From the NCBI GenBank assembly GCA_035943355.1, contig DASZCG010000345.1, forward strand, positions 1 to 59,271: a stretch of DNA of 59,271 nucleotides, given 5' to 3'. Of the stretch, positions 12,311 through 34,174 are shown in pieces. The stretch's first letter is position 1; each line of letters opens with the position of its first letter. This stretch comes from Gemmatimonadales bacterium (GTDB lineage Bacteria > Gemmatimonadota > Gemmatimonadetes > Gemmatimonadales > GWC2-71-9). The notes below the pieces were generated by a model that saw only the letters and a program-made list of their open reading frames with translations, had not been told where the DNA came from and did no database searches. Made by a program: the position numbers and the translations under genes.

Positions 12311-14898
12311 GCAAAACACGCATCGTCCTGCCGATCGAGGGGATGACGTGCGCGAGCTGCGCCGTCACGGTGCAGGAAGCGCTCACCGGCGCGGCGGGCG
12401 TGTCGTCCGCCGGCGTCAACTTCGCGACGAATAAAGCCGCCATCGAGTATGACGACGGCCAAACGAATGTCGCCCAGCTGATCAAGACCGTCCGCGAGGC
12501 CGGCTACAACTGCGGCAAGGCGAGTGTGACGTTCGGGATCATCGACCTGCACTACGCGCCGAGCGTGGCGCCACTGGAGCAGTCGCTGGCGCGCGTGCCC
12601 GGCGTCATCCGCGCCGTCGCGAATCAGGCGACGGAAACGGCGACCGTCGATTACGTCCCCGGCGTCGTGACGGCCGCCGATCTGGAGCAGGCGGTCACCG
12701 CGGCCGGCTGCGAGGTGGCGGAGCCCATTGCCGCCGAGGATCCGATCGAGCGCGAGCGCATCGCCCGCAGCCGCGAAATCCGCACGCTGTCCTGGAAGTT
12801 CGTCCTGGCCGCCGTCGTGACCGTCGTCGCCATGCTCGGCTCGATGCTGCTGATGGCCGATCGTCCCATGGGCGACAATGGGACGATGAAACAGGTGGAT
12901 TTGCTGGGCCGGCTGTTGATGCCGCTTGCGATCTGGCTGCGGGATTGGGTGAGCGGCCAGGGCTGGGTGCTCAACCTCGATTGGGTGAAGTGGGGACTGG
13001 CACTGGTCGCCCTGCCCGTGGTGGTCTGGTCCGGCCAACAGTTTTACAAGGGGACGTGGAGCGGCCTCCGTCACCGCAGCGCCGATATGAACACGCTGAT
13101 CGGCGTCGGCACGGGCGCCGCGTTCCTCTACTCCCTGGTGGCGACGGCGGCACCGGGATTGTTCTTGCGCGCCGGCCTTCCGGCTGATGTCTACTACGAG
13201 GCGGTCGCGGCGATCATTGCCCTGGTGCTCCTGGGGCGGCTGCTCGAAGCGCGCGCCAAGGGGCGGACGTCCGAGGCGATCCGCCGGCTTGCAGCGCTGC
13301 GGGCCAAGGCCGCGCACGTGGTGCGCGATGGTCACGAAAGCGACATCGCGGTCGAAGCGGTGGTGGTCGGCGATCTGGTGATCGTCAAGCCTGGCGAGAA
13401 GATCGCGGTGGACGGCGTCGTGACCGAAGGGGCGTCGGCGGTCAACGAGTCGATGCTGACCGGCGAGCCGATGCCGGTTGCCAAGAAGCCGGGCGACGAA
13501 GTCATCGGCGGCACGCTGAATACGACGGGGAGCATCACGTTCCGCACAACGCGCGTCGGCAAGGAGACGGCGTTGGGGCAGATCGTGCAGCTGGTCGAGG
13601 ATGCGCAGGCGACGAAGGCGCCGATCCAGAAACTGGCGGATCGCGTCGCGGGTGTGTTCGTACCGATCGTCATCGCCTTAGCGATCGCGTCGTTCGTCGC
13701 GTGGTTCGACTTCGGTCCGTCACCGGACGTGCGCGCCCTCGTGTACGCGACGGTAGCGTTCGTCACCGTCCTCATCATCGCCTGCCCCTGCGCGCTCGGG
13801 CTCGCCACGCCGACCGCGATTCTGGTCGGAACGGGGAAGGCGGCGGAGTACGGCATCCTGATCCGCAGCGGCGAGGCGCTGGAGCGGCTGGCCAACGCCA
13901 AGACGGTGCTGCTGGACAAGACCGGCACGATTACCGAGGGCAAGCCCACCGTCACGCACATCGTCACGGCCAAGAAGCCCGACGGGACGCCGATCAGCCC
14001 GTCGGACGTGCTCAAGTGGTCCGCGTCGGTGGAGCAGCGCTCGGAGCATCCCCTGGCGCACGCCATTCTCAAGGCGGCCCAGGACAAGCAAGTCTCGCTC
14101 CTGCCGGTCGAGAAATTTGCCGCGATGGAAGGTCGCGGGGTGCGGGGTACTGTCGACCGCCGCATCATCGAGGTCATCTCGCTGCGCCACGCGCGCGAAC
14201 GGAGCCTCGAACTGGGGTCGCTCGGCGCCGATGCCGATCGCCTCGCCGCCCAGGCGCGCTCACCGGTGATCGTGGTCGTCAACAACACCGTCTATGCGGT
14301 GATCGCGATCTCCGATCCGATCAAGCCGACGTCGAAGACCGCCGTCGCGCAGCTGACGCGTCTGGGCCTGCCGATCGTGATGGTATCGGGCGATTCTCGC
14401 AAAGGCGCGGAAGCCGTCGCTGCCGAAGTCGGGATCGAGGACGTGATCGCCGAGGTGCTGCCGTCGCAGAAGGCGGATCTCGTGAAGAAGCTGCAGCGCC
14501 AGGGCACGCATGTCGTGATGGTCGGCGACGGCATCAATGACGCACCGGCGCTGGCACAGGCCGACGTGGGCATCGCGATCGGGACCGGGACCGACATCGC
14601 GATGGAAGCGTCCGACGTGACGCTGATCCGCGGCGATCTGGCCGCCGTCTGTATCGCGATCGAGCTGGCGCGCCGGACGATGCGCACCATTCGCTGGAAC
14701 CTGATGTGGGCGTTCGGCTATAACGTGTTGTTGATTCCGATCGCCGCGGGCGCGCTCTATCCGATCACGGGATGGCTGCTGTCTCCGGTGCTGGCGAGCG
14801 CGGCCATGGCCTGGTCGAGTCTCTCGGTGGTGCTGAACAGTCTGACGCTGCGGCGCTTCAAGCCGCGCGGGACCACGCTCGTGGCGGAAGGAGCCTGA
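12307..14898 (+). CDS. copA: Copper-translocating P1B-type ATPase
   Basis: 863-aa [48 protein letters not shown] overlap with the upstream gene. Confidence 0.95.
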
Positions 14899-14900
14899 CG

Positions 14901-15191
14901 ATGCGGTACTTTCATCGCACCAGCGCGAGTCCCGAGCAGGTGCTCGACGTGGCCAAGAGTTTCTTTGGTGGGCGGCTCGCTCCGGCAGAAGAATCTCCCC
15001 GCCGCCGCGCGTATCAAGGTACCCTGGGACGCATCACGATCAGCGCGGGTCCCGAGGGCGGGCATTACACGTTCGTAGAAGTCGTGACGGATCAGGTGGG
15101 CGAGTCCGAGCTCGACAAACTGGCAAAGCGGTTTCTCGGCGAAGTGCATCGGTTGGTAGAGCCGACGCACGTGCCGCGCGGCGCTTACTAA
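14901..15191 (+). CDS. Hypothetical 96-aa protein downstream of copA
   Basis: ATG lies 2 nt after the copA stop. Intact ORF MRYFHRTSASPEQVLDVAKSFFGG...; no motif recognised. Confidence 0.5.
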   Translation: MRYFHRTSASPEQVLDVAKSFFGGRLAPAEESPRRRAYQGTLGRITISAGPEGGHYTFVEVVTDQVGESELDKLAKRFLGEVHRLVEPTHVPRGAY

Positions 15192-19501: not shown

Positions 19502-20342
19502 TCTGCACTGCCATTCGACGGCATCCGACGGAGAGTGTGAGCCGGCTGAAGTGGCGCGCCGCGCGCGCGCGGTGGATCTCGCCGCGATCGCGCTGACCGA
19601 CCACGACACCACCGACGGCGTCGCGGATGCGACGCGCGAAGGGGCCACACTCGGCGTGCGCGTGATTCCGGGCTGCGAGTTCAGCGTGCGCGCTCCCTGG
19701 GGCGAGCTGCACGTGCTGGCGCTGTTTCTCCCGACCGAGAGCGAGCGGCTCCAGGACTTTCTGCGGGACACGCGGGCGGCCCGGCGTCGCCGCGGCGAGC
19801 AGATCGTCGCCAAGCTGCAGGGCCTCGGCGTGGACATCGACCTGGACGACGTGCAGTCGCAGCTCGCCGACGGCGACCGCGGCGCCTTGGGCCGCCCGCA
19901 TGTCGCCCGCGCGCTCGTCGATTCCGGTGCCTGCGAGGACATCACCGACGCCTTCCGCCGCTACTTGGGCCGGGGCCGGGCGGCCTACGTCGAGAAGCCG
20001 CTGCCTCAGCTCGCCGAAGTTACGGCGCTCGTGCACGACGTGGGTGGTCTGACCGTCGCAGCGCATCTCGGCGACCGTGGCACCGAAGCCCAGCTGCGCA
20101 TCTTTCAAGACCAGGGACTCGACTGCGTCGAGGTCCGGCACCCCAGCCACGCACCGGCGGTCCAGCAGCGCCTCATGCGCATCGCGGAGCGACTGGGACT
20201 CGGCATCAGCGGTGGTTCGGACTGGCATGGGGAGAGTGAATACGGCGAGTCGCATGCGCCGCTCGGCAGCATGGAGGTCCCGGAGACGTGGTTGCAGCAG
20301 CTCGAGCACCGCCTCGAGCTCAACGCGAGGAAGAGAGCATGA
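19497..20342 (+). CDS. PHP-domain metal-dependent phosphoesterase (TrpH/YciV-like)
   Basis: The ORF track starts at GTG 19551, but the in-frame upstream sequence encodes IDLHCHSTASDG, the PHP HxH motif. Hence a likely ATT 19497 or CTG 19503 start. LTDHDTT follows. Confidence 0.8.
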   Translation: MDLHCHSTASDGECEPAEVARRARAVDLAAIALTDHDTTDGVADATREGATLGVRVIPGCEFSVRAPWGELHVLALFLPTESERLQDFLRDTRAARRRRGEQIVAKLQGLGVDIDLDDVQSQLADGDRGALGRPHVARALVDSGACEDITDAFRRYLGRGRAAYVEKPLPQLAEVTALVHDVGGLTVAAHLGDRGTEAQLRIFQDQGLDCVEVRHPSHAPAVQQRLMRIAERLGLGISGGSDWHGESEYGESHAPLGSMEVPETWLQQLEHRLELNARKRA

Positions 20343-20776
20343 GCGAACCGTTGGCCGTCGGCAGCAAGGCGCCGCCGTTCACGGCCGCGGCGTCCGACGA
20401 CCGCACGTACACGCTGGCCGATCTGCTCAAGCACGGACCGGTGGCGCTCGTCTTTTACCCGGGCAACAACACCCCGGGCTGAAACCGCCAACTCTCCGCC
20501 GTGCGCGATGAGATCGAAAAATTCAAGGCAGCACGGATGCAGCCGTTGGGCGTGAATCCGGCGAGCGTGGACAGTCACAAGAGCTACGTGGCAAAGTTCA
20601 AGTTCAATTTTCCGCTGCTCTCCGATCCCGATCGCGCGATCGCGGGCGCGTACAGCGCCGTGAAGGACGACGGCAAGGGGATCCAGCGGACCGTGTACGT
20701 CATTGGCCGCGACGGAACGGTGCACTTCGCGCAGCGCGGTGCCCCTCCGGTGGATGACATCGTCCGTGCCCGCTGA
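20339..20776 (+). CDS. bcp: Bcp/AhpC-TSA-type peroxiredoxin with in-frame TGA (20480-20482) at the peroxidatic Cys position; probable selenoprotein, otherwise a nonsense pseudogene
   Basis: Same-frame ORFs 20288..20482 and 20501..20776. Joined, they read FYPGNNTPG-TGA-NRQLSAVRDEIEKF...FPLLSDPD...RTVYVIGRDG. There is no Cys anywhere else. ATGA start overlap with the PHP gene. Confidence 0.7.
20493..20513 (+). other. Candidate SECIS-like hairpin 10 nt downstream of TGA
   Basis: UCUC-CGC / loop CGUGC / GCG-(AU bulge)-GAGA, paired by hand. An alternative longer fold spans 20485..20552. Confidence 0.4.
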
Positions 20777-21491
20777 TCTCCACGGCAAGGTCGCCCTCAT
20801 TACGGGTGTCGGGCGCGTCGGGCAAATCGGCCACGCCGTGGCCCGTGGCCTGGGGCGGGCCGGCGCCAAACTGCTGCTCGCGGACGTCAACGCGGTCGGT
20901 CTCGCCGACCGGGTCAAGGAGTTTGCGGCCGAGGGCATAGCCGCCAAGGCCTCCGCCGGTGATCTCACCCAGCCGGAGGCGGCGCAGGCGGCCGCCGCCG
21001 CCGTTCAGTCGCAGTTCGGCGGCCTCGACATCGTGGTGAACGTCGCGGGAGGGTTCTTCAGCTTCGGGCCGTTCACCGAAGTGCAGCCCGACGCGCTTGA
21101 TCGCGAGCTCGCCGTCAACTTCAAGACGGCATTCTTCATGTGCCAGGCGGCGATTCCGGCGCTGCTGGCGCGCGGCGGCGGCGCGATCGTGAACTTTGCG
21201 TCGATTGCCGTCGTGCGCTCATTGATGCACATGTCGGCCTACAGCGCGGCAAAGTCGGCGGTGGCGGGACTGACCCGGGCGCTCGCGCGAGAATATCGCG
21301 ACGCCGGCATTCGTGTGAACGCGGTCGCGCCTGCGACCGTGCGGACCGCCGACAACGTCGCGCAGATGCAGGACCCCAAAGCGCCGCTCGTCGAGCTGGA
21401 GGAGGTGGTCAACACCGTACTCTTCCTGGCGAGTGACGAGGCCAATGCCATCACCGGACAAGTCGTCCCGATCACCGGGAAGGCGTACTAG
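20754..21491 (+). CDS. Short-chain dehydrogenase/reductase
   Basis: Contains GKVALITGVGRVGQIG, NVAG, YSAAKSAV and NAVAPATV. Start ATG 20754 (alternative GTG 20766) overlaps the peroxiredoxin 3' end. Confidence 0.85.
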   Translation: MTSSVPADLHGKVALITGVGRVGQIGHAVARGLGRAGAKLLLADVNAVGLADRVKEFAAEGIAAKASAGDLTQPEAAQAAAAAVQSQFGGLDIVVNVAGGFFSFGPFTEVQPDALDRELAVNFKTAFFMCQAAIPALLARGGGAIVNFASIAVVRSLMHMSAYSAAKSAVAGLTRALAREYRDAGIRVNAVAPATVRTADNVAQMQDPKAPLVELEEVVNTVLFLASDEANAITGQVVPITGKAY

Positions 21492-22944: not shown

Positions 22945-23282
22945 ATCCCAACGAGCGTCGCCGCTATCTGGAGCACGCGCGCGATCTGTTCAATTCCGGT
23001 GACTACTGGTTGGCCCACGAGGCGTTGGAAACAGTCTGGCGTTCTATTATTAGTGAGAACGAGGCACGGGTCTGGCAGGGCTTTATCCAGGCGGCCGCGG
23101 CCCTGCTGCATCGTGCCCGCGGGAACCGCCACGGCACGGTAGTGGTTGGAGCGGCAGCACTGGCAAAGCTGACCGGACCGCAGCAACCCGAAATCGAATA
23201 CGAGATGGTGGACTTTCGCGCGCAGTTGGCGCGCGCCCTCGCGGGGGAGGGCAATCCCCCACGATTGGAATTCATCGCGTGA
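22941..23282 (+). CDS. DUF309 domain protein
   Basis: 113-aa ORF. Contains FNSGDYWLAHEALETVWR...WQGFIQAAAALLH. GTGA junction. Confidence 0.7.
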   Translation: MNPNERRRYLEHARDLFNSGDYWLAHEALETVWRSIISENEARVWQGFIQAAAALLHRARGNRHGTVVVGAAALAKLTGPQQPEIEYEMVDFRAQLARALAGEGNPPRLEFIA

Positions 23283-24250
23283 CTAAGCGTGTCGCACTCA
23301 TCTACGACGTCGTGATCGTCGGCGCCGGTCCCGCGGGGCTGTGCGCCGCGTTGTACGCTGGCCGGGGCATGCTCAAAGCCGTCACCATCGAGCGCGGTGC
23401 ACCAGGCGGCGAGCTGCTCAATACCGATCTCATCGAAGACTACATCGGCTTCGAGAGCATCAAAGGGTGGGATCTCGCGCAGAAGATGACCGAACACGCC
23501 AAGAAGTTCGGCGCTGAAATTGTTACCGATACGGTGGACCGGATCGGCAGGGAAGCGGACGGCTGGTTCGACGTCGAAACCGCCCGCGGCAACACGTACC
23601 GCAGCCAGGCGGTGATCCTCACAGCGGGCGGCACACCGGTGAAGCTCGGTGTGCCCGGGGAAAAAGAATATGCCGGCAAAGGGGTCTCTTACTGTGCGGT
23701 CTGCGACGGCGCGTTCTTCAAGGGTGAGCATCTCGCGGTCGTGGGCGGCGGGGACGCGGCGGTGGAAGAGGCCGATTACCTGACGCGCTATGCCAGCAAG
23801 GTGACGCTGGTGCACCGCCGCGAGGAGTTCCGCGCCTCGAGGCTCCTGCAAGAACGCGCATTTACCAATCCCAAGATCGCCGTCATTCGCAACACGGTCG
23901 TCCCGGAGATCGCCGGCAACGCGAAGGGCGTCACGCACGCGGTATTGGAGCACACGACCACGGGCAAACGCTCCAATCTCGATGTGGGTGGCGTATTCAT
24001 CTTCGCAGGGTTCAAGCCCAACACGCAGCTCGTGGAAGGTCACGTCGATCATGACGCCGGCGGCTACCTGATTACCGATAACAAGATGATGACATCGATG
24101 GCCGGGCTGTTTGCCGCCGGTGACGTGCGCAGCCAGGTGACGCGCCAGATCACCACCGCCGTCGGGGACGCCACGACCGCGGCCATCGCCGTCGAGAAGT
24201 ACCTCAAGTCGGTGCGCGAGAGCGACGGCAAGGTCATGGCCCGCAAGTGA
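23279..24250 (+). CDS. trxB: Thioredoxin-disulfide reductase
   Basis: 323-aa ORF. Contains VVIVGAGPAGL, the redox motif CAVCDG, VVGGGDAAVEEA and GLFAAGDV. Confidence 0.93.
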   Translation: MTKRVALIYDVVIVGAGPAGLCAALYAGRGMLKAVTIERGAPGGELLNTDLIEDYIGFESIKGWDLAQKMTEHAKKFGAEIVTDTVDRIGREADGWFDVETARGNTYRSQAVILTAGGTPVKLGVPGEKEYAGKGVSYCAVCDGAFFKGEHLAVVGGGDAAVEEADYLTRYASKVTLVHRREEFRASRLLQERAFTNPKIAVIRNTVVPEIAGNAKGVTHAVLEHTTTGKRSNLDVGGVFIFAGFKPNTQLVEGHVDHDAGGYLITDNKMMTSMAGLFAAGDVRSQVTRQITTAVGDATTAAIAVEKYLKSVRESDGKVMARK

Positions 24251-25019: not shown

Positions 25020-25868
25020 TTGCTGGGCATCGACTGCGCCGCCCGCGCGGGCCGCATTCAGCTGGCCACGTGGGCGTCCGGCGGGCGCCTCTCGTTCGCG
25101 GACGCGCTGCGCCTCAACCTGTACGGGGAAGCGGCGTCCACGCTGACGCCGAATCGGTTAGGCGGAGAGCCGGCGCGGTTTCTCGGCATGACGTGGTCGG
25201 GGTTGCGTGTCGTGATGGCGCTGGTCGCGCTGGGCGTGGAAGTCGCTGCGGAATGGCCCGTGTTCGGGATCATGGCGCTGGCGCTCGCCGCCTACTACGT
25301 CCCCGATTGGAGCCAGGCCGCGGACCGCTTCCTCAGTCACAGCCTCGCGCGCGATCTGCTCGGCATCGAGCTCGTCGCGCTCGTCCTGCTGATCTTGGTT
25401 TGGACGTTGCAGCGTCTGGTGCGCCCCGGCGCGATCCGGCATCGCGTGCGGCGGCAATGGCGCGTCGCGCTCGCGCACGTGCGCCGCGCGCCGTGGTGGG
25501 TGTTGTTCGCGGGCGCGTTACTGACGGCCGTGAGCCTCGCCGCGCGCGCCTTGATTCTCCCGGCCCTCGCGTGGGGCCATCCCGATGCGCCGCCCTTCGG
25601 CGTGATGTTCTTCGGGTCGCTCGCGCTGATTCACGCCCCGCTCGTCGTGCCGTTGCCGTCGGGCGGCGGCGGCATCGAGGTCGCGTTTCTGTCCGGATTC
25701 GCGGGCGATTTCGGGGCGGGGCATCAAGTGACGATGCTGCTCCTGTGGCGCTTCTATACGACGATCGTGCTGACGATCCTGGGTATCTATCTGCTGGTGC
25801 GCACGCACGGCACCAAGGCCGCCACGGAGCTGTTCACCGTCGGCTGGTTCCGCCGGCCCCGCCGGTAG
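25020..25868 (+). CDS. Polytopic membrane protein, flippase-like / lysyl-PG-synthase TM-region (UPF0104) family
   Basis: 282-aa ORF from TTG with several hydrophobic helices. The LTPNRLGGEPARF segment looks typical of the family (from memory). Confidence 0.55.
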   Translation: MLGIDCAARAGRIQLATWASGGRLSFADALRLNLYGEAASTLTPNRLGGEPARFLGMTWSGLRVVMALVALGVEVAAEWPVFGIMALALAAYYVPDWSQAADRFLSHSLARDLLGIELVALVLLILVWTLQRLVRPGAIRHRVRRQWRVALAHVRRAPWWVLFAGALLTAVSLAARALILPALAWGHPDAPPFGVMFFGSLALIHAPLVVPLPSGGGGIEVAFLSGFAGDFGAGHQVTMLLLWRFYTTIVLTILGIYLLVRTHGTKAATELFTVGWFRRPRR

Positions 25869-26190
25869 GCGCAGGCGCCATCGCCATCAACACGATCGTG
25901 CGTTCGCTCGCGCGCGCGACACCGTGCGGGATGGAGGCCGGGGCGACGATCAAATCGCCGGGACCCGCCGCGACGGTGTTCTCGCCGATGATGAAAGTAG
26001 CCTTTCCACTGAGCACCACATAGAATTTGTCGGCGCCCGCGTGCGTGTGCACCGATTGGCTTTGTCCCGGCTCGAAGCAGTTGAGCCCCACGATCAGGCG
26101 GTGGGATCGAAAGCAGTCGAGCTTCGTCATGGCGTCCGCGCGGAACGCGGCGCGCTCGAGCAGATGCTGCACCAATTCTGGGGATTCCAT
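25834..26190 (-). CDS. Cupin domain protein
   Basis: Start taken at MESPELV (ATG 26190). Cupin motifs GQSQSVHTHAGADKFYVVLSG and PASIPHGV. 35-nt convergent overlap with the upstream gene. Confidence 0.75.
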   Translation of the reverse strand: MESPELVQHLLERAAFRADAMTKLDCFRSHRLIVGLNCFEPGQSQSVHTHAGADKFYVVLSGKATFIIGENTVAAGPGDLIVAPASIPHGVARASERTIVLMAMAPAPTGGAGGTSRR

Positions 26191-26263
26191 GGGCGATTCC
26201 TGGCTCCAGACGGACGATACGCGCAGGGAGCGAAATGATACGACTGGGACCGGGGGTGGGCCA

Positions 26264-27670
26264 ATGAGCCAGACCCGACTGGAACGCGACCCCCTGGGAG
26301 ATCTGCCGGTTCCGGCGGACGCGCTGTGGGGCATTCAAACCGAGCGCGCCCGCCAGAATTTTCCCATTTCCAATCTGCGACCCCTCCCCGCGTTCGTCGA
26401 CGCCTGTATCTGGATCAAGAAGGCCGCCGCGCTGACGCACCGCGAAACGGGGAGACTCGACCAGCAGCGTGCCGATGCCATCATCCGCGCGGCCGACGAG
26501 GTCCTCGCCGGGGGGCATCGCGATCAGTTCGTGGTCGATCCCTATCAGGCCGGGGCCGGCACGTCGCACAACATGAACTGCAACGAGGTGCTCGCGAACC
26601 GCGCCAATGAGCTGCTGGGCGGGAAGCGGGGCGAGTACAAACCGGTGCATCCCAACGATCACGTCAACATGGCTCAGTCCACCAATGACGTGATTCCCAC
26701 CGCGATCCGGCTCGGCGCCTTGGCGCTGCTGCCCGCGCTGACGGAGTCGCTCACGCGTTTGGCCCACGCGTTCCTGGCCAAAGGCAAAGCGTTCGACCGC
26801 ATCGTCAAGTCCGGCCGGACCCACCTTCAGGACGCGACGCCGGTGCGCCTCGGCCAGGAGTTCACGGCGTACGGCCACACCGTCGAGCGCAATAGCGCCC
26901 GCATCACGCGCGCGGCGGACGATCTGCGCGACCTCGGCATCGGCGGCACGGCGGTCGGCACCGGGCTCAACGCCGAGCCCGAGTACCCCGCGTTGATGGT
27001 CAAGCACCTTCAGGCGATGACCAAACAGCAGCTCCGCGCCGGTCAGGATCGCGTGCAGCTGATGCAGTCGATGGGCGACGCTGCAGCGTTCTCGGGCGCC
27101 GTGCGGACGTACGCCGCCGATCTCGGCAAGATCGCCAGCGATCTCCGCCTCATGGTGTCGGGGCCGCGCACCGGGTTCGCGGAGATCGTGTTGCCCGCGG
27201 TGCAGCCAGGATCGAGCATCATGCCGGGCAAGGTGAATCCGTCAATTCCGGAGATGGTCAATCAGGTCTGCTTTCAAGCCCTCGGCAACGACGTCACGGT
27301 GACGACAGCGGCCGAAGCGGGACAACTCGAGCTGAACGTGATGATGCCCGTCATCGCCCACAACCTGTTCTTCTCCGTGATGATTCTCACGAATGCGACT
27401 CGCGTGCTGGCGGAGCGGTGCGTGGAGGGCATCGAGGCCGACGCGGCGCAATGCGCGTATTGGCTCGAGCGGAGCCCGGCACTCGTGACCGCGCTCGCGC
27501 CGAAGATCGGCTATGCGGAGGCCGCCAAGCTGGCCAAGGAAGCCGTCGCCAAGAACGTCACCGTGCGGCAGCTCGTGATGGAGAAGGGCCTGTTGAAAGG
27601 CAAGGAGCTGGATGAAGTACTCGATCTCCGGGCAATGACCGAGCTGGGTGTCCCGGGAGAGCGGAAGTAG
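26264..27670 (+). CDS. aspA: Aspartate ammonia-lyase (class II fumarase/aspartase family)
   Basis: Start at MSQTRLERDPLG. Contains QAGAGTSHNMNCNEV, QSTNDVIPTA and GSSIMPGKVNP. The GAGTS and QSTND variants favour aspartase over FumC. Confidence 0.8.
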   Translation: MSQTRLERDPLGDLPVPADALWGIQTERARQNFPISNLRPLPAFVDACIWIKKAAALTHRETGRLDQQRADAIIRAADEVLAGGHRDQFVVDPYQAGAGTSHNMNCNEVLANRANELLGGKRGEYKPVHPNDHVNMAQSTNDVIPTAIRLGALALLPALTESLTRLAHAFLAKGKAFDRIVKSGRTHLQDATPVRLGQEFTAYGHTVERNSARITRAADDLRDLGIGGTAVGTGLNAEPEYPALMVKHLQAMTKQQLRAGQDRVQLMQSMGDAAAFSGAVRTYAADLGKIASDLRLMVSGPRTGFAEIVLPAVQPGSSIMPGKVNPSIPEMVNQVCFQALGNDVTVTTAAEAGQLELNVMMPVIAHNLFFSVMILTNATRVLAERCVEGIEADAAQCAYWLERSPALVTALAPKIGYAEAAKLAKEAVAKNVTVRQLVMEKGLLKGKELDEVLDLRAMTELGVPGERK

Positions 27671-29210: not shown

Positions 29211-29663
29211 ATGCGTGTTACCACCTGGGCGGAATACGGATTAATCGTCTCCAGCCATCTCGCCAAGCGCGCGGGGCAGGGACCGGTCGCTGCCCGTGAG
29301 CTCTCCGAGCAGGAGCGCCTCCCCCACGATTATGTCGAGCAGATTCTGCTGCGCCTGCGGCGCGCCGGTCTGGTCGATTCCGTCCGTGGCGCGCGTGGCG
29401 GCTACCTGCTGGCCCGCGCGCCGCAGGCCATCAGCGTCAAGGACGTCATCGAGGCGTCGGAGCACGTGACCTTCGAAGTGAACTGCGACCTGCACCGGGT
29501 CGACGCTGAGCGCTGCGATCCCGCGACGGCGTGCAGCATTCGCCCCGTGTGGCGCCTGCTGGAGCGGCGCATCAACGAGGTGCTCGCCGGCATCACGCTC
29601 GCCGATCTGCAGCTTGCCGAGCCGCAGGTGTACCAAATCGCCGGGGTTGGCTCAGGGAACTGA
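29211..29663 (+). CDS. Rrf2-family transcriptional regulator (IscR/CymR-like, three Cys)
   Basis: 150-aa ORF. wHTH segment ELSEQERLPHDYVEQILLRLRRAGLVDSVRGARGGYLLA; Cys cluster C-x10-C-x5-C. Confidence 0.88.
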   Translation: MRVTTWAEYGLIVSSHLAKRAGQGPVAARELSEQERLPHDYVEQILLRLRRAGLVDSVRGARGGYLLARAPQAISVKDVIEASEHVTFEVNCDLHRVDAERCDPATACSIRPVWRLLERRINEVLAGITLADLQLAEPQVYQIAGVGSGN

Positions 29664-29665
29664 CG

Positions 29666-30802
29666 ATGCTGGCCCACGAGGAGCTGCTGCGGTACTCGCG
29701 GCACCTCACACTCCCCCAGGTAGGTCTCGCAGGCCAATCGAAGCTGCGCTCGGCGCGCGTTCTGCTCATCGGTGCGGGAGGTCTCGGATCACCCGCGGGA
29801 TTGTACCTCGCCGCAGCAGGCGTCGGCACCCTCGGCATCGTCGATTTCGACATCGTCGACCGCAGTAACCTGCAGCGCCAGATTCTGCACGGCACCTCGG
29901 GCATCGGAACCGCGAAAACCGAGTCCGCGCGCGAGCGGCTGCGCGACGTCAATCCGCATGTGGTAGTCGAGCCCTTCTCCGAACGGCTCACATCGGCGAA
30001 CGCGCTCGACGTGATCCGCCGCTTCGACATTGTCGTCGACGGGTCGGACAACTTCCCCACACGCTATCTGGTCAACGATGCCTGCGTACTGCTTGGCAAG
30101 CCCGACGTGTTCGGGTCGGTGTTTCAGTTCGACGGGCAGGTTGCGGTTTTCGACGCGCGGCGCGGTCCGTGCTATCGCTGCCTGTTCGCCGACCCGCCCC
30201 CTCCCGATCTCGTTCCGTCGTGCGCTGAAGGCGGCGTGCTCGGCGTCTTGCCCGGCATCATCGGATCGCTGCAGGCACTCGAAGCGATCAAGCTGATCGT
30301 CGGCTTCGGTGAGTCGCTGATCGGCCGGCTGCTGCTGTTCGACGGGCGTCGCATGCAGTTCCGCGAGCTCGTGCTCGCGAAGGATCGCGACTGTCCGGTG
30401 TGTGGGGAGAATCCGACGGTCACGACGCTGATCGACTATGAAGCGTTCTGCGGGATGCGGGATACGGAAAGCGGGATCCGTAATGGTGGTGAGATCAGTC
30501 CCCAGGAGCTATACCGCGAACGCGGGCGGAAGCCGAATCTGATGCTGCTCGATGTGCGGGAGCCACGCGAGGCGGACATCGCGCGCATCGATGGCGCTCG
30601 CTACATCCCGCTGCGCGAATTGCCGGGACGCCTCTCCGAGCTCCCCGGGCACGGGGAGATCGTCACCGTCTGTCATCACGGCCAGCGCTCGCAGAAGGCT
30701 CGTGAGATTCTCAGCGGCGCTGGGTTTGAGAAGGTGAGAAGCTTGGCTGGTGGGATCGACGCTTGGTCTCGGGAGATCGACGCCAAAGTTCCGAGGTACT
30801 AG
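29666..30802 (+). CDS. moeZ: ThiF/MoeB-type adenylyltransferase fused to a C-terminal rhodanese domain (MoeZ-like sulfur-carrier activating enzyme)
   Basis: Starts at MLAHEELLRYSRHL. Contains LIGAGGLGSP, CYRC...CPVC zinc motifs and the rhodanese loop CHHGQRS. Confidence 0.88.
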   Translation: MLAHEELLRYSRHLTLPQVGLAGQSKLRSARVLLIGAGGLGSPAGLYLAAAGVGTLGIVDFDIVDRSNLQRQILHGTSGIGTAKTESARERLRDVNPHVVVEPFSERLTSANALDVIRRFDIVVDGSDNFPTRYLVNDACVLLGKPDVFGSVFQFDGQVAVFDARRGPCYRCLFADPPPPDLVPSCAEGGVLGVLPGIIGSLQALEAIKLIVGFGESLIGRLLLFDGRRMQFRELVLAKDRDCPVCGENPTVTTLIDYEAFCGMRDTESGIRNGGEISPQELYRERGRKPNLMLLDVREPREADIARIDGARYIPLRELPGRLSELPGHGEIVTVCHHGQRSQKAREILSGAGFEKVRSLAGGIDAWSREIDAKVPRY

Positions 30803-31413: not shown

Positions 31414-32663
31414 ACGTCTTCCTTCTTATTGCTCTGCTGCTGCCGCAACAGGTCCTGATCGCGACGCCTCGCGGTCAGGCCAGCATACCCGTGACGAACG
31501 AGCGGGGTAGTGCCGCCGTCGCCGCCGTGCTGCTGTCGCAGCCGCTCGGCCTGGCCATATCGCTGGATGGCTCCACGATCCGCGCGACCTTGGGGGCGGG
31601 CGACAGCTCGTTCGAGTTCGATCTCGGCTCGCCCTTCGTTCGCTACGTCGGCACCGCATACCCGATGGTTGGCGCTCCGTACGTGGCGCGCGACACGCTG
31701 TTCCTGCCGCTGCATTGGCTGGTCGATTACGTGCCACACCTGCTCGCCGGACGCTACCGCTGGAATCCCTGGCTCGGGCGGCTGGATGAGTTGATCGGCA
31801 CGACACCGGCGCACGTCGTCGCGGGCCCCCCCCCTTCGACCCCCGCAGCCCCCGCGGTCGCCGCACCGGCGATTGCGTCACTGGGCGTGCCGGGTGGGAG
31901 CGCCCCCGCTGCTCCGAATCCCGTCACGGGCCTGCGGTTGCCGCACACGATCGTCGTCGATCCGGGGCACGGCGGCGTCGATCCCGGCAACCCGGGCATG
32001 TATTTCCCGCACGGCCTCACGGAAAAGGACATCACGCTCGGCGTTGGGCGACTGCTCAGGGCCGAGCTGCTGCGGCGCGGTCTGAACGTCGTGCTGACGC
32101 GCGCGACCGATACGCTGATCGATCTCGCCAATCGTCCGCTCTTCTGTCGTACCGACTGCGATCTCTTCGTGAGCATTCACGTGAATGCGATGCCGGCCGG
32201 CAAACGCCAAACCCAGGTGAACGGGGTGGAGACGTACTTCCTGTCGGACGCCAAGACCGAAGATCAGAAGCGCGTGGCGCAGATGGAAAACGACGCCCTC
32301 CGGTTCGAGACGACGGCGACCATGGAGGGGCCGCTCGCCTATATCCTGCGTGATCTCCAGTTGAACGAGTATCTGCGCGAATCTGCTCGGCTCGCGGAGC
32401 TCGTGCAGGGGAAGGTCTCCGGGATTCATCCCGGCGAGGATCGGGGCGTGCAGCAGGGCCCGTTCATGGTTCTCGCGGCGGCGCGCCGGCCGGCGATTCT
32501 CGTCGAGACCGGCTTCGCGACGAATCGCGACGACGGGGCGTTCCTCGCGTCGGCGTCGGGGCAGCACAAGATCGCGACCGCGATCGCCGACGGCATCGTC
32601 ACCTACCTCCTCGAGTTCGAACGCAAGCTCGCCGTGGGCAACGGCGGCGGACAGGCCCGATGA
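31410..32663 (+). CDS. N-acetylmuramoyl-L-alanine amidase (Amidase_3, AmiC-like) with an N-terminal extra domain
   Basis: GTGA junction with smpB. Contains TIVVDPGHGGVDPG, SIHVNA and ILVETGFATN. Confidence 0.85.
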   Translation: MNVFLLIALLLPQQVLIATPRGQASIPVTNERGSAAVAAVLLSQPLGLAISLDGSTIRATLGAGDSSFEFDLGSPFVRYVGTAYPMVGAPYVARDTLFLPLHWLVDYVPHLLAGRYRWNPWLGRLDELIGTTPAHVVAGPPPSTPAAPAVAAPAIASLGVPGGSAPAAPNPVTGLRLPHTIVVDPGHGGVDPGNPGMYFPHGLTEKDITLGVGRLLRAELLRRGLNVVLTRATDTLIDLANRPLFCRTDCDLFVSIHVNAMPAGKRQTQVNGVETYFLSDAKTEDQKRVAQMENDALRFETTATMEGPLAYILRDLQLNEYLRESARLAELVQGKVSGIHPGEDRGVQQGPFMVLAAARRPAILVETGFATNRDDGAFLASASGQHKIATAIADGIVTYLLEFERKLAVGNGGGQAR

Positions 32664-34174
32664 TCCCCCGGCGCGGGCTCCTTGCGGTGGCTGCTCTGCT
32701 CGCGGTGTGCGGAGTCGCGGGCTGCGCCTACTACAACGCGATGTGGTCAGCCGAGCAGTACGCGAAGGGCGCGCGGAAGGCGGAGGCGCAAGGTCAGGAA
32801 TCGGAAGCCCGCTCACAGTGGGCCCAGGCCGCGGCCAAGGCGGAAGCCGTTGTCATCAAGCACCCTAAGAGTCGCTGGGTGGACGATGCGTTGGTGTTGG
32901 AGGCGGAGGGACTGGCGCGGTCGGGCTCGTGTGCCGACGCGATAGATGTCATCGCGCGAGCCCGCCCGGTGGCGAAGGACGTGGCGTTGCGCGAACGGCT
33001 CGCTCTCGCCGATGCGCAATGCGCGCTGGCGGCCGGTCGTCCGGTCCAGGCGCACGCGGCTCTCGACGAGGTCCTGAAGTCCAGGGATCGGGCGCGCCGG
33101 TCCCGGGCCGCATACTTCGCGGGTCAGGCCGCTGTGCTGCGGCTGGACTACGGCGCCGCGGTGGAGCATTTGCAACGCTCGCATGAACCCGCCGCGCGCC
33201 CGGTGCTCGCGCACGCGCTGCTCGCGACCGGTCGCGCCGCTGAAGCGGCGGCGGTGGTCGATACGATCGGCGGTGATCCGACCTTCGAGGTGGAGCGAGC
33301 CGATCTGCTCGCCCAGCTCGCGGCCGTCGGCGGTCCGGCAATGGCATCCGCGACGCTCGACCGGTTACTCACGCACGCGCGCATTCCATTTGCCGAGCAG
33401 GGGCGATTGCTCATTGCCGATGGTGACCGGCGCGCTGCCCAGGGTGACTACCAGCCCGCGGACGCGCGCTATCGCCGCGCCATTGCGGTTACGGACCCCG
33501 TATCAAGCGAAGCCGGCGTGGCCCGAGTACGAGTACAGCGCCTGCTCGTCGTGCAGGCGACTCAGCGCAGTGACCTCACGCCGGTGATTGCGGAGCTCAC
33601 AGATCTCGCGCGGGTGGAGACGGGGACTACCGACGCCAAGCATCTGCTCGATCTCGTGAATCAAACAACCACAGCTCCTCCGAGCGCGGGAGCGCGTTTT
33701 CGCATCGCCGAAATCGCGCGGGATTCGCTCGGCGCGCCGGCGCTGGCCGGTCAGCTGTTTCTCGATGTGGCGGCGAGCGATACCGGGTCCTTATACGCGG
33801 CCAAAGCGCTCGTGGCCGCCATCCCGCTGCTCCCGGATCGTCACGACTCTATCGCCACGGTTCTCGACACGCGCTATGCCGCGTCCCCTTACACGCGGGC
33901 GTATCACGGTGAGCCCAGCGTCACGTATGCCGCGGCCGAAGACTCGCTCGCCCGCGAGTTAGGCGTGGCCATGGCGAGCGCCACGACGGTGAGGTCTTCC
34001 GGAGCGCGCTTCGCGATTCCCGTTCCCGGCACGCGCGGCCCGCGGCTCGACGAACCGGCGGTCCAACCAGCGGCACATGCGGCGCGCCCGCCCGGTACGC
34101 CTCCCCGTCCTGGCGCTCGCCCCACGCCTGCGAACACCCAACGCGACCGGCCAGCAGCGCCGGAGCGCCCGTGA
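32660..34174 (+). CDS. Ala-rich helical-repeat (TPR-like) lipoprotein with a Pro/Arg-rich tail
   Basis: 504-aa ORF. Lipobox LLAVCGVAGC; ATGA junction with the amidase gene. Confidence 0.6.
   Translation: MIPRRGLLAVAALLAVCGVAGCAYYNAMWSAEQYAKGARKAEAQGQESEARSQWAQAAAKAEAVVIKHPKSRWVDDALVLEAEGLARSGSCADAIDVIARARPVAKDVALRERLALADAQCALAAGRPVQAHAALDEVLKSRDRARRSRAAYFAGQAAVLRLDYGAAVEHLQRSHEPAARPVLAHALLATGRAAEAAAVVDTIGGDPTFEVERADLLAQLAAVGGPAMASATLDRLLTHARIPFAEQGRLLIADGDRRAAQGDYQPADARYRRAIAVTDPVSSEAGVARVRVQRLLVVQATQRSDLTPVIAELTDLARVETGTTDAKHLLDLVNQTTTAPPSAGARFRIAEIARDSLGAPALAGQLFLDVAASDTGSLYAAKALVAAIPLLPDRHDSIATVLDTRYAASPYTRAYHGEPSVTYAAAEDSLARELGVAMASATTVRSSGARFAIPVPGTRGPRLDEPAVQPAAHAARPPGTPPRPGARPTPANTQRDRPAAPERP

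Follow-up and report, generated by a model that had tools for sequence, protein, structure and literature searches.

Does the in-frame TGA that divides a peroxiredoxin gene of a Gemmatimonadales bacterium mark a broken gene, or is it read as selenocysteine (Sec)? The gene lies in a 59,271-nt stretch of contig DASZCG010000345.1 (the window; all positions refer to its forward strand), and the TGA stands at the codon where the peroxidatic cysteine (CP) of a Bcp-type peroxiredoxin is expected. The original prediction, made from the DNA letters, proposed a selenoenzyme and named a recent nonsense mutation as the alternative. On the evidence presented here the TGA is very probably a genuine Sec codon (a probability of about 0.9), and the gene, bcp, would encode a 145-residue Bcp/PrxQ-type thiol peroxidase with selenocysteine as its peroxidatic residue.

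The open reading frames (ORFs) 20288..20482 and 20501..20776 were found to lie in one frame and to be separated only by the TGA and six sense codons, the layout that had been described. The bcp gene contains a single internal in-frame TGA (20480-20482) and is terminated by a TGA of its own (20774-20776). The frame downstream of the internal TGA is intact, as stated earlier, although the count of 98 codons was not upheld, the actual number being 97 sense codons. The joined translation confirmed that the 145-residue product contains no cysteine at all; its peptide across the UGA is predicted to read HGPVALVFYPGNNTPG-X-NR, where X is the UGA position.

When a cysteine was substituted for the stop, the bcp product matched positions 1-122 of the 124-position AhpC-TSA profile PF00578 (E = 6.9e-32). 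Its motif is P41-G-N-N-T45-P-G-U48, that is, P41-x3-T45-x2-[TGA]48, and alignment with the BCP structure 5enu from PDB (E = 6.9e-19) placed NTPG-[TGA] opposite NTPGC. Together with the reading frame, these two comparisons substantiated the claim that TGA replaces the cysteine codon of the P-x3-T-x2-C motif in a Bcp-type peroxiredoxin. The conserved peroxiredoxin arginine also is present, since R116 in IQRTVYVI aligned with GIERSTFLI of 5enu. The closest PDB entries were all BCPs or AhpE (E = 7e-19 to 1e-12), and the nearest NCBIfam models were those of Bcp/PrxQ. None of the cut-offs was reached: the E. coli-type Bcp model PRK09437 scored 68 bits against a cut-off of 140, the Deinococcus PrxQ equivalog 57 bits against 260, and the PrxU equivalog NF040737 43.9 bits against 270. 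By these matches the predicted product belongs to the Bcp/PrxQ subfamily, yet is an equivalog of neither PRK09437 nor Deinococcus PrxQ.

Conservation of the TGA was assessed in two scans. The species scan used one genome per GTDB species, and its best 80 loci, all from Gemmatimonadales metagenome-assembled genomes (MAGs), showed 70-90% protein identity; the metagenome scan was seeded with a Cys homologue and yielded 21 further TGA loci (L112-L132). TGA was present at the CP codon in 80/80 of the best-matching loci, each from a different Gemmatimonadales species, and all 80 read VALVFYPGNNTPG-U-NRQLSAVRDE. Such consistency greatly exceeds what would be expected by chance. The 21 metagenome contigs also carried TGA at this codon, at identities down to 46%. 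Among the best 120 clusters of a protein search, 44 were 91-residue C-terminal fragments that start six codons past the TGA and are 81-90% identical, whereas the full-length (Cys) homologues reached at most 74% identity. Annotation thus breaks the gene at one and the same place in all of the closest relatives, in keeping with the earlier expectation that gene callers would divide it. An exact-sequence look-up of the 91-residue fragment of the window gene found no record. Two Sec-Bcp copies, both with TGA, were observed on different contigs of one MAG (L037 and L078 in SMAG_U15243, DATIXG01), with 78% and 72% identity to the window protein, respectively; they are either paralogues or the product of a mixed bin.

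Selection on the protein was estimated from the ratio of nonsynonymous to synonymous substitution rates (dN/dS) relative to the window gene. The ratio was 0.148 over the 35 codons that precede the TGA, compared with 0.158 over codons +11 to +80, with dS at approximately 1. Purifying selection is equally strong in the two halves of the gene.

Three Cys homologues (P0007, P0035 and P0045) were found in a gene order identical to that of the window, namely 2-oxoacid dehydrogenase E1a/E1b/E2, two small genes, PHP, Bcp, SDR(s), AF_1314_C, DUF309, TrxB and metallo-beta-lactamase. Because they share this order they are regarded as orthologues that carry TGC or TGT, and the TGA genes and their syntenic counterparts form, on sequence and synteny, a classic Sec/Cys pair. 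The comparison at the CP column that had been suggested earlier thus gave TGA in all of the 80 nearest species and TGC or TGT in the syntenic Cys orthologues (L083-L111), whose peptide, CNRQL[S/C]AVRD, is almost identical. In a neighbor-joining tree, Cys subclades were nested within the main Sec clade, while a few Sec genes lay outside it; repeated switching between Sec and Cys is only suggested by this tree, because it was built from 116 residues and carries no support values. In the P0007 clade (L083-L086), the Cys genes read TGT AAC CGC CAG CTC TCC GCC GTG CGC GAT GAA. L083 is the Cys form nearest to the Sec clade, and its TGT is followed by a nearly intact copy of the element found after the TGA in the Sec genes; with the U of UGA numbered as nt 1, the genes of the P0007 clade depart from that element only by A12G and G33A. 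They look as if Sec had recently reverted to Cys and a fossil Sec insertion sequence (SECIS) had stayed behind. Two further homologues, P0043 (148 aa, Logan assembly) and P0074, have other residues at CP, one Arg (TPGRNRQL) and the other Ser (TPGSNRQL). Both variants are single-base neighbours of TGA or TGC, and errors of sequencing, pseudogenes or inactive forms of the enzyme could explain them.

The codons that follow the TGA were under a constraint beyond that on the protein. Across 81 sequences, third-position entropy was approximately 0 at codons +1 to +10 (AAC CGC CAA CUC UCC GCC GUG CGC GAU GAG) and approximately 0.8-1.9 elsewhere, even at invariant amino acids. In the TGA genes (n = 97 unique sequences) the synonymous difference rate was 0.073 for codons +1 to +10 and 0.423 for the rest of the gene; the corresponding values for the Cys orthologues (n = 17 unique sequences) were 0.378 and 0.405. 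The frozen codons are not simply preferred codons. CAA accounts for 13% of the Gln codons in the window, yet for 95% at codon +3 of the TGA genes, and TCC accounts for 19% of the window Ser codons, yet for 99% at codon +5. Individual nucleotides also separated the two groups: A12 was found in 95% of the Sec genes, whereas 88% of the Cys genes have G there; G33 occurred in 99% versus 6%, and A34 in 98% versus 0%. The last two also alter the protein (Asp to Glu and Leu to Ile/Met, respectively). This strong synonymous constraint, which is specific to TGA genes, indicates that some RNA element is present after the UGA. The Sec reading is accordingly supported by the TGA in 80 species and 21 contigs, by purifying selection on both of its sides and by a nucleotide constraint confined to the TGA genes.

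Only one conserved hairpin was recovered with RNAalifold. It consists of a CUC/GAG helix (nt 13-15 paired to nt 31-33), a 2x2 internal loop, a CGC/GCG helix (nt 18-20 paired to nt 26-28) and an apical loop, CGUGC (20500-20504, nt 21-25), which lies 17 nt past the UGA and has G-U at nt 22-23. This G-U compares with G23-U24 in the fdhF SECIS of E. coli. The paired positions were constant in 96 or 97 of the 97 sequences, the variable sites (nt 9, 12 and 30) were unpaired, and the Sec-specific G33 is the closing base of the helix. The consensus criteria for a bacterial SECIS (bSECIS) are a loop of 3-9 nt that has G within its first two nucleotides, a spacing of 16-37 nt, an upper stem of 4-16 bp and a minimum free energy (MFE) of -7.5 kcal/mol or lower (PMC13188914). 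The loop of 5 nt, the G at loop position 2 followed by U and the spacing of 17 nt match this consensus. Folding of the downstream RNA, which had been proposed as a check, gave a divided result, in that a conserved hairpin with fitting loop and spacing was found, but the 3-bp stem and the energy of -5.4 kcal/mol did not conform. The MFE fold of 20470-20560 was dropped as a candidate; it was no better than folds of shuffled sequences (z score of -0.8), and its long-range CCGUGC/GCACGG pairing was not conserved in the alignment.

Several observations weigh against the Sec reading or the element assigned to it. Covariation support was absent for the hairpin, because its pairs never vary, and its upper stem and its energy do not reach the stem (at least 4 bp) and MFE thresholds for a bSECIS. 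The peptide NRQLSAVRD is conserved in the Cys orthologues too, so that the protein itself accounts for some of the conservation. There was no Rfam match to a SECIS or to tRNA-Sec, either at the gathering threshold or at E values up to 10. The selA, selB, selD and tRNA-Sec genes were not found in the 59-kb window or in approximately 1.1 Mb of related loci: tblastn searches of the window and the 80 loci, with the SelA, SelB and SelD proteins of E. coli as queries, returned nothing, Pfam and NCBIfam annotation of approximately 50 window ORFs revealed no selenium-metabolism genes, and no tRNA-Sec was found in the window. The sole ARAGORN 'tRNA-SeC' in the 80 loci (L070, 13192-13268, 77 nt) lies on the opposite strand of a 670-aa GGDEF-EAL ORF and was rejected as a false positive, because of its location inside this ORF and the lack of Rfam tRNA support. 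The hairpin, whose exact form we infer from the consensus fold, is best treated as the best model of the element, conserved as sequence rather than as a covarying structure, and not as a demonstrated structure.

A screen of the 80 loci for recurrent in-frame TGA codons returned bcp and one other gene, an AhpD-like gene of the CMD family, which belongs to the same cluster and lies downstream of bcp by a few kb. The AhpD-like gene reads C-R-Y-[TGA] in 12 loci (L045, at 14560-15183 with the TGA at 14890, and L046, L049, L051, L055, L058, L059, L071, L072, L075, L077 and L041) and C-x-Y-C, with TGC, in 5 (L078, L083-85 and L087). After its TGA comes a hairpin of 7 bp, CUGUCUU-GGC-AAGACAG, which was 100% paired and included two independent U-A to C-G compensatory changes (L077 and L041), an outcome reached in 4/500 shuffles; in the loci with TGC this hairpin is destroyed. 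The C-R-Y-U gene is probably a second selenoprotein gene with a canonical SECIS in related genomes, and provides indirect support for the use of Sec in the lineage. The AhpD-like/CMD gene is absent from the window, where no remnant of it was detectable. In the relatives, it occupies the space of approximately 400 nt between the LPG_synthase_TM gene (window 25020-25868) and the fumarase gene.

TGA at the CP codon also was found outside this clade. Four metagenome loci (L140, L142, L145 and L174) encode unrelated Bcp-type peroxiredoxins, with approximately 35% identity, in which TGA occupies this codon, which suggests that Sec-Bcp enzymes occur in several lineages. In these four the cysteine at CP+5 is retained (U-T-x-E-x-C), and strong hairpins with G-U-U loops lie downstream; at the same distance from the UGA as in the window, the hairpin of L142 (loop GUU) reached -23 kcal/mol, and a strong hairpin was found in L145 as well.

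The alternative that survives best, although it is improbable, is read-through without selenium, whereby the UGA would be translated as Cys, Trp or Gly by near-cognate or suppressor decoding, or by a Cys-loaded tRNA-Sec, and the downstream element would be a generic stimulator. This explanation draws on the lack of detectable Sec machinery in the window and related loci, and on a hairpin weaker than the consensus bSECIS. It is opposed by the chemistry of the enzyme, since an active peroxidase needs Cys or Sec at CP and TGC would be the simpler means of encoding Cys; several lineages do carry TGC or TGT in place of the TGA. In addition, a SelB-type model is suited by the G-then-U loop and by its spacing from the UGA, and the second cluster gene of the relatives has TGA at a CxxC-type cysteine followed by a canonical SECIS. 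Finally, 16 of the 27 Pfam-supported window genes, bcp included, end in TGA, which makes it the most frequent genuine stop of the window; it serves as a normal terminator and has not been reassigned genome-wide.

Considerably less probable still is termination at the UGA with re-initiation at GTG 20501, which would yield 47- and 91-residue polypeptides as a split protein that is not a peroxidase. The GTG, six codons past the TGA, is indeed invariant and is the start found by gene callers, but the six intervening codons are invariant in amino acids and are translated within one protein in the Cys orthologues. The split product would be without any redox residue, and the TGA aligns exactly with the catalytic cysteine of the homologues. 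The remaining alternative, a pseudogene formed in one strain by a recent TGC-to-TGA nonsense mutation of an ordinary Cys-Bcp, would take one base change and has syntenic Cys orthologues in its favour, but it was ruled out, because the relatives all have TGA (80/80 at the species level, and 21 contigs), the opposite of a lone TGA among TGC relatives with nothing conserved downstream, because purifying selection at dS of approximately 1 is equal on either side of the TGA, and because the downstream synonymous constraint is confined to TGA genes.

If the TGA is decoded as Sec, the UGA would be recoded by SelB carrying Sec-tRNA(Sec), and SelB would be recruited by an mRNA element inside the coding sequence (nt 4-33), the core hairpin of which would present the CGUGC loop. 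The selenolate, held by Thr45 and Arg116, would then attack the peroxide and form a selenenic acid. The CP+5 position, which holds the resolving cysteine in atypical 2-Cys BCPs, is Ser (TCC) in all Sec forms and Cys in many Cys orthologues. Since the window product has Ser there and no cysteine elsewhere, the enzyme should act as a 1-Cys-like '1-Sec' peroxiredoxin. With no resolving cysteine, the selenenic acid would have to be reduced by an external thiol, most plausibly thioredoxin kept reduced by the co-located TrxB. The trxB gene was confirmed to belong to the same gene chain, being arranged co-directionally with bcp approximately 2.5 kb downstream, and it is kept beside both Sec and Cys orthologues; TrxB probably supplies the reductant system of the peroxiredoxin.

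A more speculative proposal, which we consider possible but doubtful, is that the Gemmatimonadales bcp element represents a distinct minimal class of bacterial SECIS, in which a 21-nt hairpin with flanking A12 and A34 was built almost wholly from synonymous choices within a pre-existing NRQLSAVRD peptide and is recognised as sequence. Were this so, such a cheap element would have permitted repeated switching from Cys to Sec and from Sec to Cys in an abundant, aerobic order of soil bacteria, and standard SECIS finders would miss elements of this kind.

PrxU of Eubacterium acidaminophilum, the founding Sec-peroxiredoxin, has reportedly been known since 2001. The window protein resembles the Prx/PrxU family in its AhpC/TSA fold, the predicted Sec at the peroxidatic position of PxxxTxxC/U, the in-frame UGA and the existence of Cys homologues; it differs from PrxU in that it belongs to the Bcp/PrxQ branch, comes from the Gemmatimonadales, is free of cysteine and has an unusually small, sequence-invariant SECIS candidate. 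With the Cys-containing Bcp/PrxQ proteins (E. coli Bcp; PDB 5enu, 3drn and 2cx3; Xanthomonas BCP 3gkk) and the 1-Cys AhpE of M. tuberculosis (1xvw) it shares the NTPGC-type motif and the conserved arginine. In contrast to Cys Bcp/PrxQ, the window protein would have Sec in place of the CP cysteine and has Ser in place of the resolving cysteine at CP+5. Like the E. coli fdhF-type SECIS and the consensus bSECIS (the Zhang and Gladyshev model, given in Fig. 2 of PMC13188914), the window element is located within the ORF, immediately 3' of the UGA, and has a small loop with G-U; it departs from the consensus in its short upper stem, its higher energy and its conservation as sequence instead of covarying structure. 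The earlier statement that Sec-peroxiredoxins are already known was correct, since peroxiredoxin selenoproteins (PF00578, TxxU) are an established family and among the commonest in bacteria (PMC13188914; PMC5029168, Table 3). AhpD-like CxxU proteins also are catalogued as a selenoprotein family, and Prx-like and AhpD-like selenoprotein genes co-occur in operons (PMC13188914); the cluster gene of the relatives is alike in its C-R-Y-U motif and canonical SECIS.

No mention of Gemmatimonad* was found in the 2026 selenoprotein review (PMC13188914) or the 2016 survey (PMC5029168), and literature searches that combined this term with selenocysteine, selenoprotein or SelD gave only incidental co-mentions; this absence from a limited sample of the literature is no proof of novelty. 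The chemistry is already known, and the genes form a Cys-free, order-wide Gemmatimonadales clade of the Bcp/PrxQ branch. Wherever it was encountered in public annotation, GenBank MAG records and JGI gene calls included, this order-wide candidate selenoenzyme of common soil bacteria has been reduced to a 91-residue fragment, and bcp would probably escape selenoprotein finders that demand a hairpin of at most -7.5 kcal/mol. Judged from the bcp family alone, at least 80 species-level genomes would depend on selenium. Moreover, the Sec and Cys orthologues in identical contexts constitute a natural experiment, in which A12, G33, A34 and the frozen synonymous sites accompany the UGA, and which should be useful for defining the minimal requirements of a bacterial SECIS.

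The features of the locus are given in Table 1.

Table 1. Features of the bcp locus (window positions; element numbering from the U of the UGA as nt 1)
Feature	Positions	Strand	Basis and remarks
PHP-family phosphoesterase gene, upstream neighbour	19551..20342	+	PHP-Bcp adjacency also in relatives
Shine-Dalgarno-like GAGGAAG, 5 nt before ATG 20339	20327..20333	+	Sequence reading; putative function
Predicted Sec-type Bcp/PrxQ peroxiredoxin coding sequence	20339..20776	+	145 residues, U48; PF00578 match, 80 same-architecture orthologues, dN/dS
UGA, candidate Sec codon at the CP position of P-x3-T-x2-C	20480..20482	+	Orthologue comparison
Candidate SECIS region, AACCGCCAACUCUCCGCCGUGCGCGAUGAG	20483..20512	+	30 nt (nt 4-33), near-invariant synonymous sites
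Proposed minimal SECIS hairpin	20492..20512	+	RNAalifold consensus; nt 13-33
SDR oxidoreductase gene, downstream neighbour	20766..21491	+	SDR family matches; probable GTG start
Thioredoxin-disulfide reductase gene trxB	23279..24250	+	TIGR01292, 356.4 bits (cut-off 343.45)

The bcp gene is tightly packed between its neighbours. As had been noted, it is coupled to the upstream gene by ATGA, in which the bcp ATG at 20339 overlaps the TGA stop of the PHP gene (20340-20342). At the other end, bcp probably shares its last 11 nt with the SDR gene, which would start there with GTG; this is judged from an overlap of equal length between the called genes of L083 and from the window sequence. Given this packing, Sec decoding may also affect downstream translation.

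A crude screen of the window for other in-frame TGA candidates returned two on the minus strand, at 33505 and 10649, which were rejected because they are antisense to plus-strand lipoprotein and H+-PPase genes. Further along the window, the fumarase ORF (26027-27670; Lyase_1/FumaraseC_C) extends too far in the 5' direction; its domain starts at residue 93. The region 29211-30802 encodes an Rrf2-family regulator followed by a protein with ThiF and rhodanese domains (MoeB/MoeZ-like), which points to sulfur-carrier chemistry and has no selenium link. A 504-aa Ala-rich ORF without a Pfam match (32660-34174), the antisense frame of which gave the spurious candidate at 33505, has a lipoprotein-type signal (…LAVCGVAGC).

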